DNA of 50,016 nucleotides from contig PFDQ01000043.1 in NCBI GenBank assembly GCA_002772815.1, positions 15,955 to 65,970 of the forward strand, written 5' to 3'. This DNA comes from Candidatus Peregrinibacteria bacterium CG10_big_fil_rev_8_21_14_0_10_42_8 (GTDB lineage: Bacteria > Patescibacteriota > Gracilibacteria > Peribacterales > Peribacteraceae). A model generated the notes under the pieces. It saw only the letters and a program-made list of their open reading frames with translations. It had not been told where the DNA came from and ran no database searches. Below are positions 1,476 through 50,016 of this stretch, in pieces. The position numbers and the translations under genes were made by a program. Positions within the stretch are counted from its first letter, which is position 1, and each line of letters opens with the position of its first letter.

Positions 1476-2198
1476 ATGCAAGAACGACTCCAGAAAATCC
1501 TCTCGGCACAAGGAATCTGCTCTAGACGGAAAGCAGAAGAGTACATCGAGGCAGGCCTCGTCACAGTAAACGGAGAAGTGGCGGCACTTGGACAAAAAGC
1601 AGATGAGGCAGTCGACACAATAGAAGTGGATGGCAAAGTTCTCGCAGATCGCAAAGAGATGCTCTACTACCTCATGAACAAGCCAGTTGGCTATATTACG
1701 AGTAATGTTGATAACGATGAGCATCCAGATAGAACTGTTCGCGATTTACTCCCAAAGGAGTTACAGGGGAAGATCTACCCCATTGGTCGCCTCGACAAAG
1801 AAACATCTGGACTCCTTCTTTTTACGAATGATGGCGTGCTTGCATACCGACTGACACATCCGTCGTTTGATCATGAAAAAGAATATGAAGTGGAATCAAA
1901 CGAAGAGGTAAAAGAAGGTCAGCTCGAAAAAATGCGCACAGGAATGATGATAAAAGATGAGAAGACAAAGCCAGCAACTGTGGAAAAAATCAGTAACACA
2001 AAATTTACTATAGCCCTAACAGAAGGGAAAAACAGACAGATCCGTCGCATGTGTAAGAAGGTAGGAATTCCACTTATTGCACTGAAGCGCACACGCATTA
2101 TGACACTAAAACCTCAGCTCGAAAAAAATGGTTTCAGAGCACTCTCTGAAAAAGAGAGAACAGCACTGTTAGAGTCAGTGCATATTGAAATTGCTTGA
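1476..2198 (+). CDS. Pseudouridine synthase, RsuA/RluB family with N-terminal S4 domain
   Basis: An internal ATG was chosen. MQERLQKILSAQGICSRRKAEEYI matches an S4 RNA-binding N-terminus. The catalytic motif is GRLDKETSGLLLFTNDG. Confidence 0.85.
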   Translation: MQERLQKILSAQGICSRRKAEEYIEAGLVTVNGEVAALGQKADEAVDTIEVDGKVLADRKEMLYYLMNKPVGYITSNVDNDEHPDRTVRDLLPKELQGKIYPIGRLDKETSGLLLFTNDGVLAYRLTHPSFDHEKEYEVESNEEVKEGQLEKMRTGMMIKDEKTKPATVEKISNTKFTIALTEGKNRQIRRMCKKVGIPLIALKRTRIMTLKPQLEKNGFRALSEKERTALLESVHIEIA

Positions 2199-2226
2199 GG
2201 TTAGTATAATTGGTATTATTCGTTTA

Positions 2227-5200
2227 ATGAAAAAAAAGTTTGTTGTAATTGGTATGGCGTTTAGCGCCCTTTTGCTAATTATTTTTACATTGCAGTCACA
2301 ATGGGGAAACTTGAAGGGGCAATCGGGATGGACTGAGTCATGTAGTATAGCGGCTAACCCTGATGGATCATGCCCCTATGGATATGGTGACCAAGGGGGA
2401 GTGTGTTATTCCTCTGATGGGACATTATGTACATGTACTAACGGAGCTAGTGGTTTTTGCGGAGCGGGGAGTTGTAGTTGTTCAGAGGTTGAGCCAGCAA
2501 GAGGAACGTGTTGTGACACAGCAACATCACCAGGTTCACCAAGTTATTTAACAGAACAAGGCTGTACAGATATGCAAGGAATATGGCATCAAGGGCCGTA
2601 TAATATGGCACTTTGCTTTTCTATCACATCGTCATCAGCATCCTCAGTAGTGTTAAGCTCGTCTGTCCAAAGCTCTTCCGTTGCGCCACGATGTGGCGAT
2701 GGAACAGTAGACCAAGGAGAACAGTGTGATGATAGTAATACTACAGATAATGATGGATGTTCTCGTTCGTGTAAAAACGAGAGGTGTGGGGATGGTATTA
2801 AACAATTAAATGAAGAATGTGATGATGAAAACACAGTGACTGCAGATGCGTGTACGAATGCTTGCACGGTAGCAAAGTGTGGAGATGGTGTTCTCCGTTC
2901 AGGGTTCGACCCCCAAACGAACGTGATCTATGAGCAGTGTGATGATGGTAATACAAACAATGATGATGGATGTGATAGTAGCTGTAAGATAGAACGATGT
3001 GGAAATTACGTTATTGAATCAAACGAAATGTGTGAACAGATCAATAATGGGTGGGTGCAAGATACGACATGTGGAAATGGTCAGTTTTGCTGTGCAGAAT
3101 GTACTACTTGTCGGATAGCGTGCCCCTTTCTTGATTCAAATGGCAGCGGTGAGATTCCTGATGGATATGGTATTCGCGGAAGGGGTGGGGAATGTGGTTC
3201 GCCGTTGTGTTATACAAGTTGTAGTTCTGCAGTATTCGAACGATGTGCAGAATGCAGTGGTTGTGGCGAGTCAGACTCTGTAGAAAGCTGCGAAGAAATG
3301 TGTGGAGATAAACCTGCGTCAGACCCATGTTGGGACGATTGTCATGAGAATAAGATATGTAATGCAGCCTGTGAAGACCCAGATGGTGATGGTATAGGGT
3401 ATTACATGGAAAACTTGTCATGCGTGAGTGGTGTTGGCGATTCCCCTGCAACGTGTCAGTTTATTACGAGTAGTAACACAGGAGGAGGTTCAGGAGGCCA
3501 AAATGGAGGGGGAAACGGAGGGCAGAATGGTGGAAATAATGGCGGAGCAAGTGGCGGAGGTGAGGGTGGTGACACCGGTGGAACGGATACAGGCGGAACA
3601 GACGGCGGTGCGTCCGGCGGTGATACGGGTGGAGCATCTTCTGCATCGGCATCTTCGATAAGTTCAACTCCACACTGCTACGAAACAGGCGAGTGTTCTA
3701 CTTGTCCCAGTTGTTTCAGTTCGTGTTTCTGCACTATGCATATCAATGCGCAAAACCAAGGGTTACCCCCGCCAAGTACCAGCCGGATTGAAAGCACTTG
3801 TACGGCTCAATGTGTCGATAGCCCACCACCTAATTCTTCCTCAAATGGAAATACATCAAGCGCTTCTAGTAGGTCTAATACCTCTAGCACTTCACGGTCA
3901 AATGGATCGGTGCCTTCTAATGGAAATAGCAGTTCTGTTATTGTTGCTTTCGATTATCATTATGAATGTATGCAGCAAAGCTGTGTACTTGTTCTGACTG
4001 CGGGGCAAGATACATGTGCTACTGACAAAGATTGTTTGGGAGCTAAGTCGTCAACGTCTGCAAATCAGTCATCGTTAAGCTCAGGGTCGTCAGGTTCAGA
4101 TCAATCTTCATCATTCTCTGATAGCTCGAATAATTCATTTAACTTCTCTTCATCATTCTCTGATGGCTCGAATAATTCATCTAACTTCTCTTCATCGCTA
4201 TCTTATAGTTCAGATACTTCTAATTTCTCTTCATCATTCTTAAGCAGTTCTATTAATTCTTCAGATATATCGAATGTTTCATCATCATCAGAATTCTCAG
4301 ATTCTTCCGCTTCCTCAGGTGTATCTACTTCTTATACCTTTAGTCAGCCTTCTTTTGCATCGTATTCTTCTGAGAATTCACAGAATTCAAATTCTAGTAT
4401 TGTGCAAGAATCATCTACATCTAACGTATCAAGCACGTCGTTTAGCATTCGCTTCTCTTCTGATTCTGAATCAAGCACATCATCACGAGGTAGTGCAAGA
4501 AGTTCGTTTGCAAACAGTACAATCATCGTCATTGCAGAAGATGATGATGGAGACGGAGACGGCGATGATGGCTTCCGAGATAATAACAATCAGTGGGTTT
4601 TGAGGCCATCTAGCTTCATTGCACAAAACGTAAACGGTACATTAGTAGCTGCAGCATCTATGTGTGGTAATGGTATTCTTGATGTTGGCGAAGAGTGTGA
4701 CGACAGCAATAGACGTGACAACGATGGTTGTTCGATATCGTGCCTTCTTGAGATTGGTATTTGTGGGGATGGAAAAGTACAAAGCCTTCTAGGAGAGCAA
4801 TGTGAGGGTGGTATTGATTGTCAGAAGTGTCGATTTGTGAGTCAGACATGTGGAGATGGCATAGTAGACCCAAGAGAAGAATGTGATAGTGGCGCGTTAA
4901 ACTCTTTGTCACCAAATGCTGACTGTCGCCCAGACTGTAGTTTATCTCGATGTGGTGATTCAGTGCTCGATACAACGGAGCTCTGTGATGATGGAAATCG
5001 ACTCAATAGTGATGGGTGTGACAGGTATTGCAGACTAGAAACAACAGTTCTTGCACAGCAAAATAGCAATAATTATGAGCAATTACAGGCTCAGATGTTA
5101 GCGAATCAACAGTTTGGCTTCCCTCAATACGCAAACTATCAACAGTTGCCCTATCAGTTGCCACTTGCACAGCTTCAACCACTTATACAGAACCAAGGTC

Positions 5201-5295
5201 CAATAGGTGATACAGGTCCTGCTGCAGTAGCAGTAGCAGCATCAGGAATGGCTGCAGGAGTCGGCTGGATACGAAGGAAGAAGCGAAAATCGTAG
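2227..5295 (+). CDS. Large cysteine-rich repeat surface protein with signal peptide, Gly-rich and Ser-rich low-complexity regions and a C-terminal sorting-signal-like tail
   Basis: Signal/TM segment MKKKFVVIGMAFSALLLIIF. About 8 copies of CGDGxxxxxEqCDDgNxxxxDGCxxxC (Myxococcus-type cysteine-rich repeat pattern), in two blocks at roughly nt 2690-3010 and 4660-5040. The tail is IGDTGPAAVAVAASGMAAGVGWIRRKKRKS. Confidence 0.85.
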   Translation: MKKKFVVIGMAFSALLLIIFTLQSQWGNLKGQSGWTESCSIAANPDGSCPYGYGDQGGVCYSSDGTLCTCTNGASGFCGAGSCSCSEVEPARGTCCDTATSPGSPSYLTEQGCTDMQGIWHQGPYNMALCFSITSSSASSVVLSSSVQSSSVAPRCGDGTVDQGEQCDDSNTTDNDGCSRSCKNERCGDGIKQLNEECDDENTVTADACTNACTVAKCGDGVLRSGFDPQTNVIYEQCDDGNTNNDDGCDSSCKIERCGNYVIESNEMCEQINNGWVQDTTCGNGQFCCAECTTCRIACPFLDSNGSGEIPDGYGIRGRGGECGSPLCYTSCSSAVFERCAECSGCGESDSVESCEEMCGDKPASDPCWDDCHENKICNAACEDPDGDGIGYYMENLSCVSGVGDSPATCQFITSSNTGGGSGGQNGGGNGGQNGGNNGGASGGGEGGDTGGTDTGGTDGGASGGDTGGASSASASSISSTPHCYETGECSTCPSCFSSCFCTMHINAQNQGLPPPSTSRIESTCTAQCVDSPPPNSSSNGNTSSASSRSNTSSTSRSNGSVPSNGNSSSVIVAFDYHYECMQQSCVLVLTAGQDTCATDKDCLGAKSSTSANQSSLSSGSSGSDQSSSFSDSSNNSFNFSSSFSDGSNNSSNFSSSLSYSSDTSNFSSSFLSSSINSSDISNVSSSSEFSDSSASSGVSTSYTFSQPSFASYSSENSQNSNSSIVQESSTSNVSSTSFSIRFSSDSESSTSSRGSARSSFANSTIIVIAEDDDGDGDGDDGFRDNNNQWVLRPSSFIAQNVNGTLVAAASMCGNGILDVGEECDDSNRRDNDGCSISCLLEIGICGDGKVQSLLGEQCEGGIDCQKCRFVSQTCGDGIVDPREECDSGALNSLSPNADCRPDCSLSRCGDSVLDTTELCDDGNRLNSDGCDRYCRLETTVLAQQNSNNYEQLQAQMLANQQFGFPQYANYQQLPYQLPLAQLQPLIQNQGPIGDTGPAAVAVAASGMAAGVGWIRRKKRKS
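4105..4270 (+). repeat. Tandem ~42-nt repeats inside the Ser-rich region
   Basis: Two near-identical units (tcttcatcattctctgatRgctcgaataattcatYtaactt) encode SSSFSD(S/G)SNNS(F/S)NF. Two degenerate units follow. Confidence 0.7.
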
Positions 5296-11115: not shown

Positions 11116-12240
11116 ATGCCAAAAAAAACTCTTACATACGTCAGTCACGAGGCATCCCGCACAGGAGCGCCCCTATTTTTGTATAATGCATTATCTCGAA
11201 TGAATCCCATAGATTGGGATCAGCAGGTCCTGCTATTGCGCGATGGTTCTCTTAAAAAGAGTTTTGCAGATTTGCATCCTACAAGGGTCTATAAAGAGTT
11301 TTGGTGGAAAGCCTTATGTCATACAAAGAAAACACCAGATCTGTATTACCTAAACTCTCATTCATATAGTTTTTTACATCAAGCACAGCAGGAAGGTGTT
11401 CCTGCTCTATGTCATGTCCATGAGGTACCACTATCATTTGCACACGAGTCTCCAGAAACACTAGAACTCCTTCGTACGTATCCATTGTCTTATCTTGCAG
11501 TATCGCGGTATGTAGAAAATATGCTTGTGTCGATGGGTATTGAACGAAAGAAAATTCGATATTGCCCCTCAGGAATAGATGTTGTGCATTGGAAGAGGCG
11601 TTCATCTGGTGAAAAATTGCGACACAAGATCGGTATACCATCTGATGCGATAGTTATCGGTATGTCAGGACAGGTAGTTTCACTGAAGGGAGTCGATATA
11701 TGGATAGAAATGGCAAAGATGCTTACAAAAAATCATCCTGAGAAGAAGTGGCATTTTGTATGGGTAGGCGGTGTATCAAAATATGAACCAGATTATCTAC
11801 AGATGATGCAGCAAGAAGTACAAGATGCAGGGTTATCACAATGTATTCACTTTGTTGGAGAGCAGCGTGATCCGAGATCATATTACGAAGTCTTTGATAT
11901 CTTTACGCTTACATCGCGCATGGAGTCGCTTAGCTTGGTCTGCCTAGAAAATGCAATGATGGGCACACCTGTCATTGCGTTCAGTGCTGCAGGGGGACCA
12001 CAGGAGTTTGGGAATCACGGATTTGTAGAACTCGTACAAGATATGAATGCACAGTTCATGGTAAATGCTGTGTTATCCATGCATGAAGATTTAAAAAGGC
12101 AGCGAGAGCTACAGGAAAAGGCAGCAATAATTATCCCACAGATGTATTCCATTGATACATCAGTGTCGACGATGAAAGATGAGATACAACGTGTATTTAG
12201 CGACGTACAGTTGTTGAAAATGCATTGTGATGAATACTAA
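11116..12240 (+). CDS. Glycosyltransferase family 4 (GT-B)
   Basis: Internal ATG 11116 was chosen so that it diverges from 11057. HEASRTGAPLFLYN and ESLSLVCLENAMMGTPVIAF. Confidence 0.8.
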   Translation: MPKKTLTYVSHEASRTGAPLFLYNALSRMNPIDWDQQVLLLRDGSLKKSFADLHPTRVYKEFWWKALCHTKKTPDLYYLNSHSYSFLHQAQQEGVPALCHVHEVPLSFAHESPETLELLRTYPLSYLAVSRYVENMLVSMGIERKKIRYCPSGIDVVHWKRRSSGEKLRHKIGIPSDAIVIGMSGQVVSLKGVDIWIEMAKMLTKNHPEKKWHFVWVGGVSKYEPDYLQMMQQEVQDAGLSQCIHFVGEQRDPRSYYEVFDIFTLTSRMESLSLVCLENAMMGTPVIAFSAAGGPQEFGNHGFVELVQDMNAQFMVNAVLSMHEDLKRQRELQEKAAIIIPQMYSIDTSVSTMKDEIQRVFSDVQLLKMHCDEY

Positions 12241-15200
12241 GGGAGAAGTGCGGATTATAATATGGATCATGTCCAAACATGTGTCCCCACTTATTTTCAA
12301 AAGCGATAATTTCTTCTCTTTTCACGTTGGCACCGAGACCACCATTATTACCTCTGGTAGCAGATTCATGATGAATAACCGATGATAGTGGATTACACAC
12401 AACACGATAGCCTTCTTGTTGTACGCGTAGGCAGTAGTCTACATCTCCAAAATCAACACCAAATTTATGTTCATCAAGCCCTCCAATATCAGAAAAGAGT
12501 TTTCTTCGTGTAAGAAGACATGCACCGCCAATAGCAGAGCAATTTCGCAACACGTAGTTGTAGTTTTCGTATCCAAGTGCATCTTTTGTATCAACTTGTA
12601 CAAGACTTGCCCAGTTTCTACCAATAATCATGCCAATACTCTGTACACGATATATATCATGTTGAGGGGGGTAGAGTAGTCTTGATCCAACAACGCCAAT
12701 CCTCGTATCAAGTAACATGGTTCCAACCAACGTGGTCAACCAATGAGGATCGGCAGGCTCTGTATCGTTATTAAGAAGAAGAATAAATTCTCCTGTTGTA
12801 CGAGCCACTACTTCGTTGTTGATGTGTGCAAAGTTAAATGCAGGAGTGTCTATCCGTATGACTTGTTCAGGGATAGAGTCGAGGTATGCTTGTGTTTTTG
12901 GCTCGGTGCTATTGTTATCAATAATAACAATCTCATAGTTTGGGTAATCTGTTTTTGTACGAATGGTATTGATACAGTGGTGCAGAAGATCAATCCTATC
13001 TTTTGTTGGAATAATAATAGTTACTTTAGAACATTGTGCTTTAGTCGGAGTATAGAAAATTTGGAAGAAGAGTGTATGGCTCTTTATAGATTCTTCAGGA
13101 CGAATAACTGTGCAAGAAATACGGCGTCGTTTTAGGCATTGTTCGATAACATTCTTTGTTTCATTTTCGAAAGATGGTTCCTGTAGAGGGTCTCCATAAT
13201 AGTGATACAGAATCTCTGGAATATGGATAACATGATGAGTTCCATCAGCAAGATGAAGGAGAATATCATGCGTGTAGGCATCGCTCTGGAGGTGATCATT
13301 AAGAAGAAATGGTAAAAGAGTTTCTCTCTGAACAATAAAGAAAGGGCGGATATAATTAAATGAGAGTAAGAGCTCTGGGCTCCAGTCTGGCTTATAAATA
13401 GGCGAGTATTGAGGTGCACCTCGATGTAGACACTCGTCATGGTCACTGTATATCGCATCTGGAAGTTCTGCCTCTTCACATGCGGCAGACATCATCGTTG
13501 CAAGAGTATGTGGCAACAAGCAGTCTTCTATGCGTAAAAAACCAATGTACATTTCCGTTGATCGACGGACGATGGATGCGCGTGTTTCTGATGTATAGAA
13601 GAATGTATGCGGGAAATCTGCAGAGTACTCCTGTATGACGTTTTGCAGTATTTCACCAGATTTTGATGCATCCAGAACAGTAACTTTCCACTCAATATAC
13701 GTTTGTTGCGTAAGAGCGTTTAAGCATTGTCGTAATTGTATTTCATCAAAATGACGCACAGGAAGTAAAAGATGAAGTGACGGCTGAAATAGCATTTGGC
13801 GTATTGCAAGGCGGCTAGCCTCTTGTTCTGCATGGGAAAAAAAATGGGTTGGCAAATAAGACTTCTGTAATGGTTCTCGAGTGTTAGGTGAGTGAACAGG
13901 CCATATTTTTCCAAGAATCCTGTGGCGGATAAACACTGCAGCGCCTGGGAATGGCTCTCCAAAGTCTGTCCATAAGTCTTTTAAGCAACTAAAAACATAG
14001 TACGCAGCTTTTTTCCGAGCTGGCGCACTGACGCGAGGAACAATTGGCTCTGGTGCAGTAAGGATTGGTGTCGTGACACCTTCTTGCAGGGCATGAACTG
14101 CAGTTGTAGATTTGCAAAATGCCTTTTTACTCCATGTTTTTTGTAGTGGTCTCTGAAGAATCTGTTCTAATTCTAGAATACCTGGAAGATATATGTCATA
14201 GAGCTTTTGAAGTTCATCTTCAGTGGTAATAGGAAGAATGGTTTTTCCTGTAGCACTGTTATTATTCATATGTGCATAGACAATGCCATTGATATGAGTA
14301 CGTGTGGTACCTCGAAAGACTGTCGAGAGATCTTCTGGAATAATATCGGGGTGTGTGGTTCCAAGAAATGTGTGAACATTATGTAGTGTTTCAGCTGGAT
14401 GTTGGAAAATATCTTCTTCAAGAATAACGACATGAATGTTTTCTTTTGGGAACCATCGAAGCCATTCCTGTAAATGCGATGCATAGAATCCCATATGAAT
14501 AATGCCATGTCGTTTTGCGGTTTCAGCAAAATTCCCAGTATGTACTAACGATCCATGGTGAAGATGATGACAATACGCAGAAAGAGCACGCATGACAGGA
14601 TGACGTAGAGATAGGACAATTTTTGTTTCTTTCCCAAGTACATCATATACATACTTAGGTGTCATAGGGTTTGGTTTCTGTAGCCCTACGTACCATTCTT
14701 GATGTGTAGTACTCGTCCAAAAATAGCTTGCCGTCTTTTCTCCAATAACTGGTTCTTCTTTTTGTTGTGAGAAATACGTTTTGCTGTAGTTATCAATATC
14801 GCGTGATGAGGGTGCCCTATTCTTCGAGAAGAATTCACATTCTGGCTGTGTTGGAAGATAGATATCAGGATGATGCGATAAGTTTTTCCATAACCATGTA
14901 CTCCCACATTTTTGTCCGCCAATAATAAGGAAATTAGGAAGTTTTTGAACTGGGGCAATAGGCTCTGGTTTTGGAAATTTTTCGTAAAGATTCTGATACC
15001 AATCAGAGACAGTCTGTATATCTGGCAATTGCATCGCATCAATTTCTCTGCAAAGACTGTCGTGCATTGATGCGGTGATAGTATGCACTATTGTATGAAC
15101 AATTTCTTGAGGGTCTTTATTCTGCAGAATAATTCCACCACCATGTTTCTGTATTCGCTCCGCTAATGCACCGCTATTTGTTACACAGACAGGAATACGC

Positions 15201-17008
15201 ATTCGAAAGCATTCAGAGAGTGTATAACTGTATGTCTCTGGCCAATTAGGAAAAAGGCAGACTAGCCGTGGTGCGATGCAATGTAAGATTGCAGGAAGTT
15301 CTTCTTGTGTGTATTTGCTAAAAAAATGGACATGAGGATTATGTGCCAATTCTGGCCATTCAGACTCTAATGTTCCAAGAAAATAGATATCAACACCTTC
15401 TTTTATGAGAAGTGGTAGAACAGATGCAATAAGAGCTTTACCCTTATGATCTGCGTGAACATAGCCAAGAAAACAAATACGATTGTTATGGTATTGCTGA
15501 ACTTGTGCATACGGCGGTATTTTTTCTGTTCCATGTTCTTGGATAAGACATCGATCCTGTACAAAGGGGAATATCTTGGCAAATGTATCTCGTGCAGTCT
15601 GCGAGGGTGCAACAAAGGTACCTACGTGCTCAAGCAGTGGATAGACATCTTGTTGCCATTGTTCATATGTTTTTGTGGGGTCGCTCGGACACGTCGTATT
15701 TCCTGATGGTATACCAAGGAATTCTCCATTTTGGAGGAGTTGCGGTGAGCCAATCGCGTAATAGTCATGAATAGAATAGACGACTGAAATGCCACATGAT
15801 TTTGCAGCTTCTATGAGAGAAAAATTACTTCCAATAAGCTGATGAATATGAAGAACGGAAATGCGCTTGCTCATAAGAAATTCTTTGAATTCTCGTAAGC
15901 TTTCCTGTGGCGCCTTCGTTATGTATGTACCTATAGAGATAGATTCAACATCTTTGAGTTCCGAGTTCTGAAATTCAGATACAGCGAGATGGTCGCTCCC
16001 TGACGGATACAGTAAGTAATGTGTAGTGTCACTCATCGATAGGATAAGGTCTTCCACATGTTTTTCTGTGCCACCCACTTTTATACTTCGTGGAGAATTA
16101 TGCAAAATATGTGCCACGGTACATGGAGATTGTTCTTCTAGTAGGTTTTTAGCAATTGCATCAACTCTATGACGAATAGTATCGAGCCGTGTGTCATTAC
16201 GAATAAATGACTCTACAATATTCCGATACTCTGAATGCATTGCTTGGAGCAATTCTTCATGCGAAGGAATAGAGCGAGCTTCTCGTGAAGGAATATCTCC
16301 ACTGAGCGACATAGATACACCTCCTTCATGGAAAACAAATGTGCTTTCATCAAGGTAGTGTGTGAATCCTGCACTTCTTGCTCTCATACACCAGTCGTTT
16401 TCTTCACCGTATCCGCGTCCAAAAATTTCGTTAAATACGCCAACGATAGCGCGTGCTTTCCATGGAATATACATACAAAAGCCTACAGCAGTTGGAATAG
16501 TCAGTAGCGTCGTGCTTTTTGATAGCGCAATGTTCTGTGCAAGATTTTCAAGTAATCTCTTTTCTTTTAATGCAATTGCATCATTTTGGGCAACAGAGTA
16601 AATAGATGCCTCATTTGAAAGAGGGGTAATACTCCCTGCATCGGGGTGAGCTGTAGCAAGTGTAGATAAACGCTCTATCCATCCATCGTAAACGATTGTA
16701 TCACTATTAAGGAGTACAACATCTTGTCCTCTTGTCTGGGAAAAGCCATAGTTTACCGCTTGCACAAAGCCTACATTCTGTTCGAGTGTGATGAGGTGTA
16801 CACGATGTGGATACTCTCGCTGTACTGCAGAAAGATACATGCCAATTTCAGGATCGGTACTTGCATCATCAATGAGAACAATTGTGCAATGATCATTCTT
16901 GGTGGTATGTAAGAGGCTCTCAATACATGCATGCACATACGTAAATGCATTATGTATAGGAATAATGATGCTTATCATTTTGCCTGTAGATTCCGAATAT
17001 TTCTGCAT
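12197..17008 (-). CDS. Giant five-module enzyme: GT2 - GT4-like - sulfotransferase - GT2 - GT2 (1603 aa)
   Basis: Five modules are recognisable. GT2 no. 1, aa 11-235: ISIIIPIHN..LIDDASTD..LLNSDT. GT-B, aa about 295-650: WPETYSYTLSECFRMRIPVCVTNSGA. Sulfotransferase, aa about 688-950: IIGGQKCGSTWL and SLRHPVMRALS. GT2 no. 2, aa about 1075-1270: LLLPVRH..YSDHDE. GT2 no. 3, aa 1328-1560: VTIIIPTKD..IIDNNSTEP..LLNNDTE..GDVDYCLRV. Confidence 0.85.
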   Translation of the reverse strand: MQKYSESTGKMISIIIPIHNAFTYVHACIESLLHTTKNDHCTIVLIDDASTDPEIGMYLSAVQREYPHRVHLITLEQNVGFVQAVNYGFSQTRGQDVVLLNSDTIVYDGWIERLSTLATAHPDAGSITPLSNEASIYSVAQNDAIALKEKRLLENLAQNIALSKSTTLLTIPTAVGFCMYIPWKARAIVGVFNEIFGRGYGEENDWCMRARSAGFTHYLDESTFVFHEGGVSMSLSGDIPSREARSIPSHEELLQAMHSEYRNIVESFIRNDTRLDTIRHRVDAIAKNLLEEQSPCTVAHILHNSPRSIKVGGTEKHVEDLILSMSDTTHYLLYPSGSDHLAVSEFQNSELKDVESISIGTYITKAPQESLREFKEFLMSKRISVLHIHQLIGSNFSLIEAAKSCGISVVYSIHDYYAIGSPQLLQNGEFLGIPSGNTTCPSDPTKTYEQWQQDVYPLLEHVGTFVAPSQTARDTFAKIFPFVQDRCLIQEHGTEKIPPYAQVQQYHNNRICFLGYVHADHKGKALIASVLPLLIKEGVDIYFLGTLESEWPELAHNPHVHFFSKYTQEELPAILHCIAPRLVCLFPNWPETYSYTLSECFRMRIPVCVTNSGALAERIQKHGGGIILQNKDPQEIVHTIVHTITASMHDSLCREIDAMQLPDIQTVSDWYQNLYEKFPKPEPIAPVQKLPNFLIIGGQKCGSTWLWKNLSHHPDIYLPTQPECEFFSKNRAPSSRDIDNYSKTYFSQQKEEPVIGEKTASYFWTSTTHQEWYVGLQKPNPMTPKYVYDVLGKETKIVLSLRHPVMRALSAYCHHLHHGSLVHTGNFAETAKRHGIIHMGFYASHLQEWLRWFPKENIHVVILEEDIFQHPAETLHNVHTFLGTTHPDIIPEDLSTVFRGTTRTHINGIVYAHMNNNSATGKTILPITTEDELQKLYDIYLPGILELEQILQRPLQKTWSKKAFCKSTTAVHALQEGVTTPILTAPEPIVPRVSAPARKKAAYYVFSCLKDLWTDFGEPFPGAAVFIRHRILGKIWPVHSPNTREPLQKSYLPTHFFSHAEQEASRLAIRQMLFQPSLHLLLPVRHFDEIQLRQCLNALTQQTYIEWKVTVLDASKSGEILQNVIQEYSADFPHTFFYTSETRASIVRRSTEMYIGFLRIEDCLLPHTLATMMSAACEEAELPDAIYSDHDECLHRGAPQYSPIYKPDWSPELLLSFNYIRPFFIVQRETLLPFLLNDHLQSDAYTHDILLHLADGTHHVIHIPEILYHYYGDPLQEPSFENETKNVIEQCLKRRRISCTVIRPEESIKSHTLFFQIFYTPTKAQCSKVTIIIPTKDRIDLLHHCINTIRTKTDYPNYEIVIIDNNSTEPKTQAYLDSIPEQVIRIDTPAFNFAHINNEVVARTTGEFILLLNNDTEPADPHWLTTLVGTMLLDTRIGVVGSRLLYPPQHDIYRVQSIGMIIGRNWASLVQVDTKDALGYENYNYVLRNCSAIGGACLLTRRKLFSDIGGLDEHKFGVDFGDVDYCLRVQQEGYRVVCNPLSSVIHHESATRGNNGGLGANVKREEIIAFENKWGHMFGHDPYYNPHFSLSIHHNAFSTTVRR

Positions 17009-28038: not shown

Positions 28039-28404
28039 ATGAAACTCAAAGAAATCGCAAAACTTACGTGGCTACCAGTTGTCGGCGCATCACTTTGCTG
28101 CCTTAGTCCAGTGATCATCGTCCTGTTTGGTCTTGGAACAGCAGCATTTGCCAGTTCTCTTGCAGATACACTCTACGGAGACTACAAGTGGTTCTTTAGA
28201 ATAGGTGGGCTCTTCCTTTTGTTGCTGTCAGTCTTTTATCACTATCGAAAGAAGGGTGTCTGTTCGCTCGACCAAGCGAAGCGTCATAAGAACGAAATCC
28301 TCAACACAATTCTTATTACCGTCTTTGCAGGAGCAATAGGATACGTCTTCTTCTTGTATGTTGTCGTGCACTACGCTGGTGTGTGGTTGAATTTGTGGGT
28401 TTGA
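28039..28404 (+). CDS. MerT-like three-TM membrane protein with a CC motif in TM1
   Basis: VVGASLCCLSPVIIVLFGLG resembles the MerT TM1 vicinal-Cys motif. A loop Cys (KKGVCSLD) lies between TM2 and TM3. Confidence 0.5.
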   Translation: MKLKEIAKLTWLPVVGASLCCLSPVIIVLFGLGTAAFASSLADTLYGDYKWFFRIGGLFLLLLSVFYHYRKKGVCSLDQAKRHKNEILNTILITVFAGAIGYVFFLYVVVHYAGVWLNLWV

Positions 28405-28413
28405 TCTATCAGC

Positions 28414-28592
28414 TTGTAACTTTTGGGATCAAAAGTTACCAAAAATCTTAACCACTGATATGAACGAAGAAATACAGGAAGAACGTACTGTGCGCTCCTC
28501 GACTAAGCTTGCTGCGGCAACTTAGCTCTTCGTCACTAAGAAGAAGTGCAGCGGTGTGATCTTCGTCCATACTACAGTGGCTAGAAGATGGA
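28414..28592 (+). repeat. Structured repeat, copy A (5' hairpin module + core + 3' module)
   Basis: Hairpin GTAACTTTTG-ggat-CAAAAGTTAC (28416-28439). The core CAAAAATCTTAACCACTGATATGAACGAAGAAATA...GTGCGCTCCTC is shared with copies B and C. The 3' module GCGGTGTGATCTTCGTCCATAC is identical to copy B. Confidence 0.8.
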
Positions 28593-28913
28593 TCACCCCC
28601 ACTTCTTCCCCCACTTACAAAAACCTCCAAAGACAGTCTGTAGGTCTGCTCCTTTTTCAGTAATGCTGTATTCAATGCAGATAGGCTTACCATCGGTTAC
28701 TGTTCGTTCGATGAGGCCTTCTTCTTCCAGTTCTGTCAGCCGCTCGGAAAGAATACGAGAGTTGATCTCTGGTAGCGCATCTTTAATTTCGCAAAACCGC
28801 ATTTTCTTTGTATCTGCGATACATCGTAAAATATGCATTGCCCACTTTTTTGAGCAAAAATCAATGATTCCGTAGATCGGACAATCGCACGATGATGGTT
28901 GTTTTTTAGGCAT
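28593..28913 (-). CDS. HxlR-family (MarR-like winged helix) transcriptional regulator
   Basis: CPIYGIIDFCSKKWAMHILRCI...RFCEIKDALPEINSRILSERLTELEEEGLIERT is a typical HxlR signature. Confidence 0.85.
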   Translation of the reverse strand: MPKKQPSSCDCPIYGIIDFCSKKWAMHILRCIADTKKMRFCEIKDALPEINSRILSERLTELEEEGLIERTVTDGKPICIEYSITEKGADLQTVFGGFCKWGKKWG

Positions 28914-28921
28914 GTACGGTT

Positions 28922-28927
28922 AGTATA
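28922..28927 (-). promoter_or_regulatory. -10 box TATACT
   Basis: Lies 8 nt upstream of the HxlR ATG (28913). Confidence 0.4.
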
Positions 28928-28977
28928 CATAGATATACCTCCAAAAACTACTTAATTACTATTAAATACATGTTTTA

Positions 28978-28997
28978 CAAAAGTAACCGACTAAGCT
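28978..28997 (+). repeat. Deleted fragment (D) of the structured repeat
   Basis: CAAAAGTAACC is joined directly to GACTAAGCT. In copy A these two strings are separated by 61 nt. Confidence 0.5.
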
Positions 28998-29031
28998 AGA
29001 CTACGTCTGTTATTTCCTACCCCTAATACTT

Positions 29032-29187
29032 ATGGGATGTTGTTCAAAGGACAATCATTGCTCTGATGAGAGCAAGAAATGTTCAGAAGGTTGTACTTGC
29101 GATACATGCAAGGAATGCGCTGAAAAGTGCAAAGAGAAGTGTGATGAAAAGTCTTCAGAGCACAAAGGTGATAGTTGTTGCGGTTAA
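29032..29187 (+). CDS. Metallothionein-like cysteine-rich small protein (51 aa, 12 Cys), absent from the ORF track
   Basis: My own translation is MGCCSKDNHCSDESKKCSEGCTCDTCKECAEKCKEKCDEKSSEHKGDSCCG*. It has CC, CxC and CxxC motifs. It is divergent from the HxlR gene and next to the MerT-like gene. Confidence 0.65.
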   Translation: MGCCSKDNHCSDESKKCSEGCTCDTCKECAEKCKEKCDEKSSEHKGDSCCG

Positions 29188-29284
29188 GCAGACTCTTCAT
29201 CGTCAAACAGGGCATCCTGGGTGGGGTGTTCTGTTTTTATGTAGCTTCGCTATCTTCATTTGTGCCTTTTTTGATAAATGATTT

Positions 29285-29600
29285 GTAACTTTTCAGATGA
29301 AAAGTAACCAAAAATCTTCGCCACTGATATGGACGAAGAAATAAAGAGAGAACGAAGCGTGCGCTCCTCAGTAAACTTCGTCGCTAAGTACGCGTGAAGC
29401 GGTGTGATCTTCGTCCATACGACAGTGGCTGGACGAGCGAGAAGTTAAGGGTGGGTTGGCAGACTGCATGTTTGAGGGCGAAGAATAAGATATGAGTAAA
29501 AGGAATACAGCGACGAGAGCCAGTCGCTGTAAGCGAACGCAGTGACCTGGGCGAGGAGCGCAAAGGAAAAAGGGGCAAAGGAATAGCGGAGTTAATATAT
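29285..29600 (+). repeat. Structured repeat, copy B (longest copy: hairpin + core + 3' module + about 170-nt extension)
   Basis: Hairpin GTAACTTTTC-agat-GAAAAGTAAC (29285-29308). About 85% identical to copy A over the first ~85 nt, judged by eye. The extension contains GAGGAGCGCA, complementary to the core GTGCGCTCCTC, plus a tail shared with copy C. Confidence 0.8.
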
Positions 29601-29622
29601 ACAAAGAAACCTCTTTAATTTA

Positions 29623-29651
29623 TTGACCCCCCTTGCTCTTCTCTTTATATT
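29623..29651 (+). promoter_or_regulatory. Sigma-70-like promoter TTGACC-N17-TATATT for the ribosomal protein cluster
   Basis: Both hexamers are near consensus with exact 17-nt spacing. It lies about 100 nt upstream of the rplC ATG. Confidence 0.55.
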
Positions 29652-29751
29652 CCTCCCGCTTTACAGCAATTACTTGTGTTCTAGTTCGCCGTTTAGTCTG
29701 AGCGTAGTCGAAGACTCCAACCAAGCGAACCAGAGGAACCTCCAAGATATT

Positions 29752-30357
29752 ATGTGTAACGGACGTATTTGTACAAAAATCGGCATGTCACGAGTCTTCA
29801 CTGAGAACGGTGATGCAGTCCCTGTTACCTACTTGAAGGTAGAACCAAACCACGTTATCCGTACAAAGACAAAGGAGAAGGACGGGTACAATGCGGTTGT
29901 TCTTGGTATCAATCCAAAGAAATGGAGAACACGCAAAGGAAACGAGCACACAAAGTATTCTACTATAAAGGAGTGGGAAGTAGAGAGCCTTGATGGCCTT
30001 GAAGCAGGGAAGGAGCTTACATCAGAAGAATTCACAACAGATGCAAAGGTGCAGATCACAGGTGTCTCTAAAGGAAAGGGATTCCAAGGTGTTATTAGGC
30101 GTCACAACTTCTCTCGTGGTCCAGAAACACACGGTTCACACCACCACAGGAAGCCAGGTTCTATTGGAATGTGTGAATTCCCTGGACGTGTTATGAAAGG
30201 TAAGAAAATGCCAGGACGAATGGGTAACGATCAGATAACCTTGAAAAAGCGTGAAATCTTGAATTGCGACGTTGAAAAAGGTGTCATTGCGGTAAAAGGT
30301 CCAGTTCCTGGACCAAATGGCTCTCGTCTCTACGTCACACTTACTCCAGCCTCATAA
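29752..30357 (+). CDS. rplC: 50S ribosomal protein L3
   Basis: An internal ATG was chosen. ..RICTKIGMSRVFTENGDAVPVT matches the L3 N-terminus. FQGVIRRHNF is also present. Confidence 0.9.
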   Translation: MCNGRICTKIGMSRVFTENGDAVPVTYLKVEPNHVIRTKTKEKDGYNAVVLGINPKKWRTRKGNEHTKYSTIKEWEVESLDGLEAGKELTSEEFTTDAKVQITGVSKGKGFQGVIRRHNFSRGPETHGSHHHRKPGSIGMCEFPGRVMKGKKMPGRMGNDQITLKKREILNCDVEKGVIAVKGPVPGPNGSRLYVTLTPAS

Positions 30358-38018: not shown

Positions 38019-38636
38019 ATGACTGCAAAAACCGCTAGACCAGACCGCAAAAAAGGTGACCGCCGTCGCCAGAAAGCCCCTTCTGAATTTGAAGAGACAA
38101 CACTCACGATCGATCGTGTGACACGTGTTGTGGCTGGAGGTCGTCGTATGCGTTTCCGTGCAGTTGTTGTGGTAGGAGACAAAAAAGGACGCGTTGGTAT
38201 TGGAACAGGGAAGTCAGGAGAGGTACAAGGCGCTGTGCAAAAAGCAACAGCTGTTGCAAAGAAGAATATGATCCGTGTACCACTTGTTGATGGAACAATT
38301 CCACATGAAATTGATCATAAGTTTAAGGCATCACGCATCCGCCTTCTTCCTGCACGTGTAGGAACAGGAATCATTGCTGGAGGTGCACTTCGTACAGTTT
38401 TAGAGCATGCTGGAGTACAGAACGTTTTGAGTAAGCGTTACGGTACAAACAACAAGCTCGTAAATGCTCAGTGTGTTATCGAGGCTTTGCAGCTCTTCCG
38501 TGGTGTAGAAGTAGGACCACTTAACCCAGAGCCAATAAAGAAGGAAGATGAAGAAGAACTTCCAGAGAACATCAAGATTACAGAAGTAAGCAAGAAATCT
38601 GTTGATCGCGAGGGGAACTTGAACAAGAAGAAGTAG
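38019..38636 (+). CDS. rpsE: 30S ribosomal protein S5 (C-terminal extension)
   Basis: IDRVTRVVAGGRRMRFRAVVVVGDKKGRVGIGTGKS. 205 aa. Confidence 0.95.
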   Translation: MTAKTARPDRKKGDRRRQKAPSEFEETTLTIDRVTRVVAGGRRMRFRAVVVVGDKKGRVGIGTGKSGEVQGAVQKATAVAKKNMIRVPLVDGTIPHEIDHKFKASRIRLLPARVGTGIIAGGALRTVLEHAGVQNVLSKRYGTNNKLVNAQCVIEALQLFRGVEVGPLNPEPIKKEDEEELPENIKITEVSKKSVDREGNLNKKK

Positions 38637-38692
38637 TTTCTCTTTATTCTTTACATAAAGTAGCTTCACTATTCTTTTTTTGATGATTCTTT

Positions 38693-38855
38693 GTGACTTT
38701 TGAAAGATCAAAAGCAACTTCGTTAATTCCTTTTGTCCCTTTTTCCTTGCTTAGCGACGCAGGTTTACCGAGGAGCGCACAACTCTGTTCTTTTATTATT
38801 TCTTCGTTCATATCAGTGGCTAAGATTTTTGGTTACTTTTCATCGGAAAAGTGAC
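38693..38855 (-). repeat. Structured repeat, copy C (inverted relative to A/B; hairpins at both ends; internal deletion variant)
   Basis: The reverse complement reads GTCACTTTTC-cgat-GAAAAGTAAC CAAAAATCTTAGCCACTGATATGAACGAAGAAATA...GTGCGCTCCTCGGTAAAC..CGTCGCTAAGCAAGGAAAAAGGGACAAAAGG. A second hairpin, GTGACTTTTG-aaagat-CAAAAGCAAC, lies at 38693-38718. Confidence 0.75.
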
Positions 38856-38863
38856 AAAAGAGT

Positions 38864-38869
38864 TATAAT
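38864..38869 (+). promoter_or_regulatory. -10 box TATAAT
   Basis: Consensus hexamer 6 nt upstream of ATG 38876. Confidence 0.45.
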
Positions 38870-38875
38870 TCTGTT

Positions 38876-39385
38876 ATGAAAAAAGCTCTTATCATCATCG
38901 CAAACAGTGGATACCAAGACCACGAATACGCAGGAACGCGAAAGGGTCTTGAGGAGGCAGGTTTTGAGATTGTTCTTGCTGCAAAAGACGCAGGTCCATG
39001 TAGTGGATCTCTGGGTGGAGCAGAACATGCAACGGTCTCACTTCGTGATGTCGATGTTTCCGATTATGATACTATCGCATTTATTGGAGGCCCTGGGGCA
39101 GCACTTCTCGCATCAGATGCTGATGCATTAAAGATAGTAAATGACGCCTACAGAGCAGATATGCCACTTGGAGCTATTTGTATTGCACCAACTATTCTTG
39201 CAAAAGCACAGGTGCTCGAGGGTAAGAGGGCAACCGTATGGAACGAGGACGGTTTACAGAAAGACCTCCTCGAAACCTACGGAGCAGAGTACACAGGAGA
39301 ATCTGTTACGATTGACGGAAACATTGTCACAGGAAATGGACCAAAAGCAGCAGAGGAATTTGGGATAGCATTGGCGAAACTATAG
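38876..39385 (+). CDS. DJ-1/PfpI family protein
   Basis: ALIIIANSGYQDHEY..., nucleophile elbow LGAICIAP, and IVTGNGPKAAEEF. Confidence 0.85.
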   Translation: MKKALIIIANSGYQDHEYAGTRKGLEEAGFEIVLAAKDAGPCSGSLGGAEHATVSLRDVDVSDYDTIAFIGGPGAALLASDADALKIVNDAYRADMPLGAICIAPTILAKAQVLEGKRATVWNEDGLQKDLLETYGAEYTGESVTIDGNIVTGNGPKAAEEFGIALAKL

Positions 39386-40603
39386 TTACTCAAACTTTAG
39401 GCGTCCAAATTGTTGCACCCATACATCTTCGTAGAGCCCGATGCCAATTTCTTCAAATTCTGGTCGAAGCATATTTGTTCGATGACTAGGGGAATTTTTC
39501 CAATCTTGCATAACTTCTTTTACCGTAAGTTGTCCTTTTGCTAGGTTCTCTCCAAGAGAGAAGATTGGTTCACAACTACACTGTTCGTTTCCTTTTATGA
39601 GGTAATTTGAACCAATTTCTAGCGATCCACCTAAGTCAAATTGCTGAGAGCAGGAACAGCTATCTGGGTTAATATCAAGGTATCCACTTCTTCGAATGCG
39701 GTCGACATAGCTCAGTCCTTCTGGTGTGTAGTGGCTAAAGTATCCTCTTTCTGCCATATCTTTTGCATGTCTCTGCCCAGAGAGTTCGAGATAGTAATTA
39801 GACCGTAGTGGTCCAAGATTATACTCTGTTCGAAAATCGTTTACTGCTTTAATGAGATCATTCCGTGTTTGTGATGCGAGGTTTGTACGAGAGGTGAGGA
39901 GCTTCAGAGTGGCATTCTTAATGCTTGTCGGCGTTGAAAGAGACATAAAAATACTTGGTTTTTTATAGAGTGATTCAGTATCTTCTTCAGTAGCAGTAGA
40001 ATGCAGCGGTATAAGCGTGGGCTGTACAGTCACAACGCCTGTTGGCACCATTTTGGCAGGAATGAGCCCATTTATTCCTTGAAGTGATGGCTCTGCCTTG
40101 AGCAGTGTATACACCGCTTTTGCAGCTTCTACATGGGAAATACGTAGGTTAGGATGGAGAAGATGTGGGCTATTGTCATCAGTAAAAAGATAATATCTCC
40201 ACGATAGACCAGCGTAAGGTCCTTCATCATTCTGTGTATCAATATCTGTGTATTGATATGGCAAATTTGTTGTGAGATGAAATGCAATACTCATCATTTT
40301 AAGAAACTCAATACGTGAGACAGAATGATCGGGAAAGACAAACCCTGTGTCTCCCACAGTAATAATTCCTTTTTCGATACCTTTTAAAATATGAGGGGTA
40401 TACCACTGTCCATCAATAACATCTGGATACTTTCCATTACTACGTGTGCCAAGTTCCACTTCAACACCAGCATTCTTAAGGAGGATCATGACTGCCTCAG
40501 ATCGTTTTACATACGAAACTGGTTCAGTTTCAGCTCCGAAAGATTGCGGAATACTACTGAAGAGAAAGATGCCAACAAAGAGGAAGGAATAGAATTTTCG
40601 CAT
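39386..40603 (-). CDS. Secreted SLH-like + CAP/SCP domain protein
   Basis: Signal peptide MRKFYSFLFVGIFLFSSIPQSFG. SLH-like YPDVIDGQWYTPHILKGIEKGIITV. CAP motifs RHAKDMAERGYFSHYTPEG and GENLAKG...WKNSPSHRTNML. It is a paralog of the protein at 5296-6087. Confidence 0.8.
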   Translation of the reverse strand: MRKFYSFLFVGIFLFSSIPQSFGAETEPVSYVKRSEAVMILLKNAGVEVELGTRSNGKYPDVIDGQWYTPHILKGIEKGIITVGDTGFVFPDHSVSRIEFLKMMSIAFHLTTNLPYQYTDIDTQNDEGPYAGLSWRYYLFTDDNSPHLLHPNLRISHVEAAKAVYTLLKAEPSLQGINGLIPAKMVPTGVVTVQPTLIPLHSTATEEDTESLYKKPSIFMSLSTPTSIKNATLKLLTSRTNLASQTRNDLIKAVNDFRTEYNLGPLRSNYYLELSGQRHAKDMAERGYFSHYTPEGLSYVDRIRRSGYLDINPDSCSCSQQFDLGGSLEIGSNYLIKGNEQCSCEPIFSLGENLAKGQLTVKEVMQDWKNSPSHRTNMLRPEFEEIGIGLYEDVWVQQFGRLKFE

Positions 40604-40613
40604 GAATCTATAT

Positions 40614-40622
40614 ATTCTATCA
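40614..40622 (-). promoter_or_regulatory. Extended -10 box TGaTAGAAT
   Basis: Lies 10 nt upstream of ATG 40603. Confidence 0.35.
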
Positions 40623-40719
40623 TAAATTCTGCATTTCTGCCAGAGCACTCTGATCCGCTGAAAATATAGTCAAAAATCTACCCAGAAATGCCTTTACGTC
40701 AGCAAATCTAGTCAGTACC

Positions 40720-41172
40720 ATGTCGCAGATTATGCTACACACTTTAAAGCCAGCACCGGGTTCTCGAAAAAAGTCTATTCGCCGTGGACGTGGTAGCAGC
40801 GCAGGCCGCGGTACAACTGCTGGTCGTGGAACAAAGGGATATGGATCTCGCGCTGGTTCGAGCACTGCTCGAAACTTCGAAGGAGGTCAGACACCACTTC
40901 TTATGCGTCAGCCGAAGCTTGCTGGTTTCAAAAACCCTAACCACAAGGAGTACGAAGTGGTAAATGTTGGAGATCTTGAGCTTAAAGTAAAAGCAGGAAC
41001 GTACGACGTGAAGGATTTGAAAGTTCAGAAACTTGTGAGCACAAACAAGCCAGTAAAACTCCTAAGCCGTGGAGAAGTAAAAAAGAAATTTGAGATCACT
41101 ATCAACGCTGCTTCAAAGGCTGCAATCGCTGCAATTGAAAAGGCTGGTGGAAAGGTCACAGTTCTAAAATAA
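40720..41172 (+). CDS. rplO: 50S ribosomal protein L15
   Basis: LHTLKPAPGSRKKSIRRGRGSSAGRGTTAGRGTKG. Confidence 0.95.
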   Translation: MSQIMLHTLKPAPGSRKKSIRRGRGSSAGRGTTAGRGTKGYGSRAGSSTARNFEGGQTPLLMRQPKLAGFKNPNHKEYEVVNVGDLELKVKAGTYDVKDLKVQKLVSTNKPVKLLSRGEVKKKFEITINAASKAAIAAIEKAGGKVTVLK

Positions 41173-49915: not shown

Positions 49916-50016
49916 AATGACAATGTTAGGGAACCTCTGAAAAACACCACTCAAAGCAGACTCCATTTTTAGCATAGAAATTGGTAAAATAGTGGCGACT
50001 CTTAGCCATTCCCTTC

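Follow-up and report, generated by a model that had tools for sequence, protein, structure and literature searches.

What kind of element is the repeat that stands on both sides of a small HxlR–metallothionein gene pair in Candidatus Peregrinibacteria bacterium CG10_big_fil_rev_8_21_14_0_10_42_8, and has it anything to do with the genes that it seems to enclose? The question was raised by a preliminary description of a 50,016-nt stretch of contig PFDQ01000043.1 (hereafter, the window), in which two copies, A and B, of an unrecognised structured repeat were seen to bracket the two genes. Copies A and B, together with a third copy, C, belong to a previously uncatalogued repeat family of marine Peregrinibacteria, which is dispersed, non-coding and rich in hairpins. 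With a probability of about one half, they are copies of a non-autonomous palindromic mobile repeat that resembles bacterial interspersed mosaic elements (BIMEs) and doublets of repetitive extragenic palindromic (REP) units, known as REPINs, or else miniature inverted-repeat transposable elements (MITEs). This reading is based on the terminal inverted hairpins, the occurrence of the unit as singlets and inverted doublets, the deletion derivatives that keep their ends, the presence or absence of copies in close relatives, and a 94% match between A and a copy at an unrelated locus of another species.

A repeat search of the window showed that A and B are direct repeats lying 869 nt apart, with 85% identity over two segments, one of 87 nt (28414-28500 and 29283-29369) and one of 61 nt (28528-28588 and 29376-29436). 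The hairpin, core and 22-nt module that had been noticed in both are, therefore, real. The 22-mer GCGGTGTGATCTTCGTCCATAC occurs exactly twice in the window, where none is expected by chance from shuffles, and the 23-nt core CCACTGATATGRACGAAGAAATA occurs three times against zero in the shuffles. The third core, at 38797-38819 on the minus strand, belongs to copy C, which had also been proposed. A family profile made from full-length relatives detects copies A, B and C only over the 50 kb. The copies stand, while their limits are corrected to 28402-28595 for A, 29283-29606 plus 29244-29275 for B, and 38690-38862 (minus strand) for C.

The cleanest full-length copy of the family (L007:356-794; related loci are cited by such L numbers) has a length of 439 nt. 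In the basic unit of ~190 nt, a 26-nt end hairpin is followed by the linker CAAAAATCTT and by a long, imperfect stem-loop that has another, variable hairpin inside it. The end hairpin, made of TTGTNACTTTT, an asymmetric loop of 6-8 nt and AAAAGTNAC, is present once at each end of the element (HP1 and HP2). Each HP1 loop has its reverse complement in HP2 (CCGATG/CATCGG and GAAAGATC/GATCTTTC), and the ends are, therefore, true terminal inverted repeats of ~30 bp. The long stem-loop, CCACTGATATGAACGAAGA … TCTTCGTCCATACTACAGTGG, encloses GTGCGCTCCTC as well as the inner hairpin.

The long form of ~440 nt is an inverted doublet, in which two diverged units are joined at the palindrome CAGACGATCGTCTG, the symmetry axis, and the second half (GGCAGACTG…CAGTCTGCC) repeats the first in inverted, diverged form. 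Unit 1 and the reverse complement of unit 2 share 64-70% identity over ~170 nt, and their alignments score 22-43 as compared to shuffle means of 5-6.5 (standard deviation 3-4). The second end hairpin is preceded by a small hairpin (GTCCCTTTTTT ATCAAG AAAAAAGGGAC) and by a motif of 15 nt, X (AAGAGAAWAGCGAAGC); in some copies, the reverse complement of this small hairpin and X is also found 5' of the first end hairpin, which gives an outer inverted repeat of ~45 bp. At least seven short copies (A, L030, L101, L006a, L075, L070 and L078b) are singlets that end at the axis, and mini-copies with both ends kept are found at C, L028, L109 and L122a. The long-range complementarities of the element (GTGCGCTCCTC/GAGGAGCGCAC) are due to the symmetry of the inverted doublet. 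A pseudoknot between these two segments was rejected, as it has no covariation signal and as own and foreign partners yield equal duplex energies.

Copy A (28402-28595, plus strand) is a singlet of 194 nt that stops at the symmetry axis (…GATGGATCA). It begins with the 5' extension TGATCTATCAGC, whose TGA is the stop codon of a MerT-like gene, followed by HP1 (28414-28439), the linker and the long stem-loop, with its 5' arm at 28452-28470, inner hairpin at 28501-28526 and 3' arm at 28560-28580; its 3'-most bases abut the stop codon of the HxlR gene. Copy B (29283-29606, plus strand) is a decayed inverted doublet. It contains HP1 (29283-29308), unit 1 with a short GUAAAC-type inner hairpin (29321-29428) and the first two thirds of the inverted unit 2 (29458-29562); after a deletion come the 3' arm of the P4 hairpin with X (29565-29591) and a degenerate HP2 (29592-29606). 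What B has lost is the final third of unit 2, together with one half of the small hairpin. Upstream of B lies an inverted end-fragment, GCTTCGCTATCTTCATTTGTGCCTTTTTTGAT (29244-29275, plus strand), which forms its left outer inverted repeat. This fragment is the reverse complement of the 3' module of B at 29565-29591 (P4 arm and X), and it is covered by a reverse-strand profile match from 29391 to 29236.

Copy C (38690-38862, minus strand) is an internal-deletion mini-copy in which both terminal inverted hairpins are kept (HP1 at 38832-38857, HP2 at 38691-38717), along with the 5' arm of unit 1 and the P4 arm with X. Its locus, between a DJ-1/PfpI gene and rpsE, is also occupied in L131/L017 (full length) and in L030 (singlet). 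A fourth copy of the same genome (L151:13957-14308) is located 4 kb past the end of the window, 5 nt after the dprA stop codon. It was also observed that GATC recurs at unit boundaries throughout the family: it is found in the axis GACGATCGTC, in the loops of the hairpins (GAAAGATC/GGGATC) and in the 5' extension TGATCTATC. Within the 194 nt of copy A, it occurs four times, as against 3.6 per kb across the window.

The family extends well beyond this locus. When one genome per species was scanned for the exact pattern, the core turned up in 10 contigs of the metagenome-assembled genome (MAG) 'Candidatus Peregrinibacteria bacterium SI074_bin159'; six other core matches in that scan lack the rest of the element and are attributed to chance. 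A metagenome scan with the 5' motif, followed by nhmmer, brought the collection to ~34 non-identical copies, all on Peregrinibacteria-like marine contigs. In all, metagenome contigs of marine Peregrinibacteria contain ~50 more copies besides those of this genome, at least 11 of them in one MAG. The copies are intergenic and mostly found at gene 3' ends: of 27 copies, ~13 lie between convergent genes, 13 between co-directional ones (7 sense, 6 antisense) and ~1 between divergent genes. At least 14 copies begin 1-22 nt past the stop codon of a co-oriented gene. Two scans of viral contigs, along with phage and plasmid collections, gave chance or low-complexity matches only.

As had been suspected, the repeat matches no known RNA family. 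The Rfam 15 covariance models, which include group I/II introns, HEARO, ROOL, GOLLD, OLE and raiA, have no gathering-level match in the window, and at a permissive E<=1-10, the region 28200-29800 and six loci with full-length copies produce chance-level matches only, none of them to HEARO or IS605-orfB. No tRNA or tmRNA was detected by a dedicated scan, and literature word searches returned nothing relevant to the family. The earlier view that the repeat has neither a coding-like open reading frame (ORF) nor a tandem array was also borne out: the short ORFs in the copies lose their frame through indels between copies. No conserved promoter or terminator pattern is seen in the family, nor any promoter-like site inside the element.

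Peregrinibacteria and other genomes of the candidate phyla radiation (CPR) are small and commonly described as repeat-poor. A density of at least four copies in ~65 kb, and of at least 11 in one MAG, is thus unexpected for a CPR genome. The copies settle at gene ends even within the ribosomal-protein superoperon, one of them giving a stop codon and another adjoining the rplC promoter. The family also disrupts metagenome assemblies, as contigs of the same strain stop inside copy B.

The history of copy A can be followed in closer relatives, which were located through their HxlR homologues. In L145, where the HxlR gene is 92% identical and the flanks are near-identical, A is absent and the stop codons of the MerT-like and HxlR genes abut (GGGTGTAATTACTTCC). 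The window holds 194 nt in place of 16 nt of this empty site; nothing is duplicated, and the HxlR gene is without its last three codons relative to L145. The region is also syntenic with SI074_bin159 (L003/L116), in which the MerT-like, HxlR and Cys-rich genes are present and an unrelated spacer of ~100 nt takes the place of A. Furthermore, A is 94% identical to the copy at L007, which lies at a non-orthologous locus in another species; between that species and the window, syntenic genes share only 70-80% identity. With B, A shares only 85%. Since A is absent from relatives that carry the gene pair and matches an unrelated locus so closely, it is a recent, lineage-specific gain, acquired after the split from the L145 lineage.

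The claim that A and B delimit a two-gene cassette does not survive this comparison. The cassette is present without A in four related genomes (L003, L145, L146 and L147), and as one relative has the cassette with no A and only a ~75-nt palindrome at the site of B, the bracketing is evidently coincidental. The cassette is older than A, and the HxlR and metallothionein genes are bystanders; they should not be annotated as a mobile cassette. A supposed deleted fragment within the cassette, D (28978-28997), likewise fails as a copy. It lies within a promoter-like site, TTTACA-17-TAGACT, before the 51-aa Cys-rich gene, and the family profile has no match there at E<=10. Because it overlaps this site, which is kept in relatives without A, D is best taken as promoter DNA of the metallothionein gene, not as a family member. 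The MerT-like membrane protein, the divergent HxlR regulator and the 51-aa Cys-rich, metallothionein-like gene (28039-29187) constitute a module conserved in five related genomes. The intergenic region between the HxlR and metallothionein genes has a conserved motif, ACTACTTAATTACTAT, that could be an HxlR operator.

How the family is maintained can be seen from its stems. Among 27 distinct unit-1 sequences, 94.5% of the cells of 31 proposed pairs are paired. Eight of these pairs (36 cells) have changed on both sides, a result matched by none of 500 column shuffles, and slid registers bring the pairing down to 27-45%. In the inner hairpin, six of the nine pairs have changed across copies, and its length varies from a 10-bp stem to the short GGUAAACC, which replaces it in B, C, L082 and L128. 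For the outer stem of unit 2, five versions exist, each with full complementarity: GGCAGACTG/CAGTCTGCC, TGCAGACTG/CAGTCTGCA, GTCAGTTGC/GCAACTGAC, GACGAGCGCA/TGCGCTCGTC and GGCGAGTGCA/TGCACTCGCC. Here, a MAFFT alignment placed the subfamilies out of register, and the arms were compared explicitly. Between subfamilies, then, the stem sequence differs and the complementarity is kept. An averaged base-pair-probability consensus of the whole element was too noisy to yield a structure. At the same time, orthologous copies differ from one another in their large deletions (B vs L003 vs L145; C vs L131 vs L030; L011 vs L082). As stems are kept by compensation while resident copies decay freely, it is the propagating form, and not each copy in place, that is under selection.

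If the family is a mobile repeat, its hairpin ends would be recognised in trans by an enzyme whose gene lies elsewhere in the genome, and this enzyme would disperse the copies. A route via folded single strands, with a HUH/RAYT-like (REP-associated tyrosine transposase) or comparable hairpin-recognising recombinase, would be favoured over cut-and-paste by a DDE transposase, since structure rather than sequence is conserved, no target duplication is seen, singlets occur beside inverted doublets, and the copies are sited at gene 3' ends. This mechanism can be proposed only tentatively. A bolder idea, and an improbable one, is that the ~190-nt unit represents a new self-propagating structured nucleic acid of CPR bacteria, whose fold is copied by a hairpin-recognising enzyme (a CPR-specific HUH enzyme or recombinase, or an RNA-level guide or ribozyme). 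On this idea, the unit would be a large-format analogue of REPINs in organisms thought to be streamlined and repeat-poor. The identity of the partner enzyme would show how such elements spread in CPR bacteria.

REP doublets of Proteobacteria form hairpins and are mobilised by RAYT, a HUH Y1 transposase. The present family is similar to the REP/BIME/REPIN group in many respects: it has extragenic palindromic units, singlets along with inverted doublets, a mosaic of short motifs, enrichment at gene 3' ends and between convergent genes, compensating stems, no target duplication and no coding content. The differences are those of format and host. The unit is ~190 nt (the doublet ~440 nt), whereas a REP has 20-40 nt and a REPIN ~100 nt; the 26-nt end hairpin starts with TTGTNAC in place of a GTAG-type tetranucleotide; there are tens of copies and not hundreds; the host is a CPR bacterium and not one of the Proteobacteria; and no RAYT gene was found in the 439 kb of DNA scanned.

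Several observations weigh against the mobile-repeat reading. Two hallmarks of REPs, the short unit and the GTAG tetranucleotide, are missing. No ORF lies inside the copies, and none of ~50 matches to the 5' end carries one. The 150 ORFs with 250 aa or more in the element-bearing loci (343 kb) fall into groups of orthologues only, with no neighbour protein that recurs or is multi-copy, and none of the 150 has a TnpB/IscB-like CxxC…CxxC zinc-finger tail (300-650 aa). A crude HUH/Tyr motif scan of 1137 ORFs (439 kb of element-bearing DNA) gave no RAYT-like motif. The IS5-like and rve-type insertion sequences (ISs) beside the window have inverted repeats (TAGGGAACCTCTGAAAAACACCACT and others) unrelated to the family ends. 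There is no clean filled/empty pair: A replaces 16 nt and the HxlR gene loses three codons. Several insertions (B, C, L015/L046, L011/L082) occur in common in genomes with no more than 75-80% identity, so mobility is infrequent. The copies were gathered via patterns of the 5' part, which biases any statement on the parts that are always retained. Finally, a functional RNA, too, could have conserved unpaired motifs and hairpins whose length varies. Pfam scans of 38 among the ORFs of the window returned housekeeping, glycosyltransferase and ribosomal genes only.

The alternative that survives best, though it is still unlikely, is a classical MITE, i.e., an internally deleted derivative of a DDE-type IS, with ~30-bp terminal inverted repeats bound as double-stranded DNA and inner palindromes that are incidental or are nested MITEs. 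The conserved terminal repeats suit this explanation, and so do the ends-only mini-derivatives (C, L028, L109), a second MITE-like repeat nested within copies and the DDE transposases of this genome. Yet no target-site duplication, of TA or any other sequence, is present at 13 complete copies or at the junction of A, with the proviso that old insertions could have lost one. A 14-nt repeat around L007 was considered as such a duplication and turned out to be the remnant of a second copy's 5' end. No ORF-bearing relative is present among the 5'-end matches, the adjacent IS ends are unrelated, singlets with one end are common, and transposase binding does not explain the covarying small inner hairpins (10-bp stem, 3-4 nt loop).

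The family can also be compared with bacterial MITEs that fold strongly, namely, Correia/NEMIS of Neisseria, ERIC/IRU of enterobacteria, and BOX and RUP of Streptococcus pneumoniae. Like them, the family is small, non-coding, multi-copy and intergenic, has terminal inverted repeats, modular variants and internal deletions, and can be co-transcribed with its neighbours. It differs from them in that neither a TA nor another target duplication is seen, no related autonomous IS occurs among the matches, each terminal repeat is itself a hairpin, and the interior is an inverted doublet with covarying inner hairpins.

As for the ISs themselves, the window ends in an IS5-like element (49927-49951 and beyond, L151:10480-12662; DUF772 and DDE_Tnp_1, with a 25-bp terminal inverted repeat, TAGGGAACCTCTGAAAAACACCACT). 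This element is interrupted by an rve-type IS, and the same-strain contigs L152 and L153 break there. Another DDE_Tnp_1 fragment is found at L151:17620-18204.

It may also be asked whether the fold itself is the function, with dispersal being secondary, as in a family of structured non-coding RNA (ncRNA) genes or a cis-acting RNA such as a 3'-UTR (untranslated region) stabiliser or terminator. This is a shade less probable than a classical MITE. Compensatory changes in several stems, an inner hairpin of variable length and conserved unpaired motifs are what such an RNA would show; the plus strand is slightly purine-rich (50-56%), the copies that follow co-oriented stop codons are numerous, and single-copy folds reach z = -3.6 to -3.8 against shuffles. 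However, the second half reverse-complements the first, and a single transcript, therefore, cannot hold the same motifs twice. The orientation to the flanking genes is random, and orthologous copies have undergone different large deletions. A sense strand could not be named from mismatch counts or folding energies either. A mid-stem A·C is present in 18 of the 27 unit-1 copies, and both the small hairpin and unit 2 contain G·T, so that the two types of mismatch exist, and the folding energies of the two strands differ little. The lack of a conserved promoter or terminator and of an Rfam family points the same way. Of the three candidates named in the preliminary description, the REP/BIME-like element and the non-autonomous mobile element, therefore, fit best, and a dedicated ncRNA family is less likely, given both orientations within one element, either orientation to the neighbours and decay by different large deletions.

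A much fainter chance is left to an element that carries a guide RNA, such as an IS200/IS605-type palindrome-associated transposable element (PATE) with an omega-RNA, whose interior would serve a nuclease or recombinase encoded elsewhere. Such PATEs share with the family the non-autonomous state, the hairpins at both ends, the absence of a target duplication and a structured interior, here of 150-400 nt and kept by covariation; non-autonomous copies also exceed any possible autonomous one. On the other hand, the end hairpins of the family are inverted, while those of PATEs are direct, on one strand, and its interior is a palindromic doublet and not a scaffold of one sense. HEARO and IS605-orfB of Rfam remained without a match at E<=1-10, no omega-RNA match was obtained, and TnpA, TnpB and IscB were not found in the element-bearing DNA (no TnpB/IscB-like ORF in 343 kb). 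The family, thus, cannot be filed as a REP/REPIN, where unit size and GTAG fail, as a classical MITE, with no duplication and no autonomous relative found, or as an IS200/IS605 PATE, where the orientation fails and omega-RNA and TnpB are wanting.

The site upstream of rplC, where B resides, is found in different states in different relatives. A promoter-like site of the rplC operon, TTGACC-17-TATATT (29623-29651, plus strand), lies 17 nt downstream of the end of B and is conserved in all relatives. At 29623-29764, rplC is without a preceding rpsJ (S10), and the operon begins at rplC with its own promoter-like site just after B. The orthologue of B at this site in L003/L147 is oriented like B; its variable region is related, and its deletion is a different one. 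L145 has only a solo palindrome of ~75 nt (the reverse complement of X, the small hairpin, and X), the left half of which is homologous to the inverted end-fragment of B, and in L146, the site is taken by a copy from another subfamily, reversed but with the same outer ends. By its distribution, B is probably an old insertion upstream of the rplC promoter, common to distant relatives. The states of the site may have arisen via deletion between short direct repeats and, where the outer inverted repeats are concerned, via inversion or replacement between them; alternatively, the palindrome may have received insertions repeatedly.

The L146 copy raises the thought of an inverton, in which a segment between inverted repeats flips and alters the transcription of neighbours such as the rplC operon. 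The ~30- and ~45-bp inverted repeats that flank the interior, and the reversed interior between the same outer ends in L146, would agree with this. Still, that interior belongs to a different subfamily, and a replacement or independent insertion explains it equally well. Four other orthologous groups hold one orientation, as do same-strain contigs. For the half of the copies that are flanked by convergent genes, there is no downstream target to switch, and no promoter-like site is found inside. An inverton is, hence, highly improbable. The weakest proposal, a local segmental duplication without a wider family, has only the direct-repeat arrangement of A and B in its favour and is refuted by dozens of copies at unrelated loci and in other genomes and by the closer match of A to L007 than to B.

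Beside copies of the family, other small repeats were observed in related genomes. One of them, a second MITE-like repeat, is G-rich (GACCTCAYCCC … GGGGATGAGGTC) and contains the palindromes GGAGAGGGG/CCCCTCTCC. It is nested in family copies or replaces parts of them at L131:4400-4530, L028:1590-1720, L012, L060 and L105; it is not present in the window. A third palindrome, TGTGACAATGTATATACATTGTCACA, also absent from the window, occurs beside copies at L003:~2000-2040, L105:865, L109:6496, L006 and L060, and it may be an operator or another small repeat.

At the locus of copy C, rpsE (38019-38636) and rplO (40720-41172) are not adjacent, and the ribosomal-protein spc cluster is thereby interrupted. 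The intervening segment (38636-40720) contains copy C, the DJ-1/PfpI gene (38876-39385) and a minus-strand gene with a CAP domain (39386-40648), a layout that is also found in L131 and L030. Elsewhere in the window, a 1603-aa fusion protein with several glycosyltransferase domains and a sulfotransferase domain is encoded at 12197-17008 (minus strand), and a 1036-aa DUF4215-repeat protein at 2185-5295 adjoins SLH- and CAP-domain proteins; together, these resemble a cell-envelope locus.

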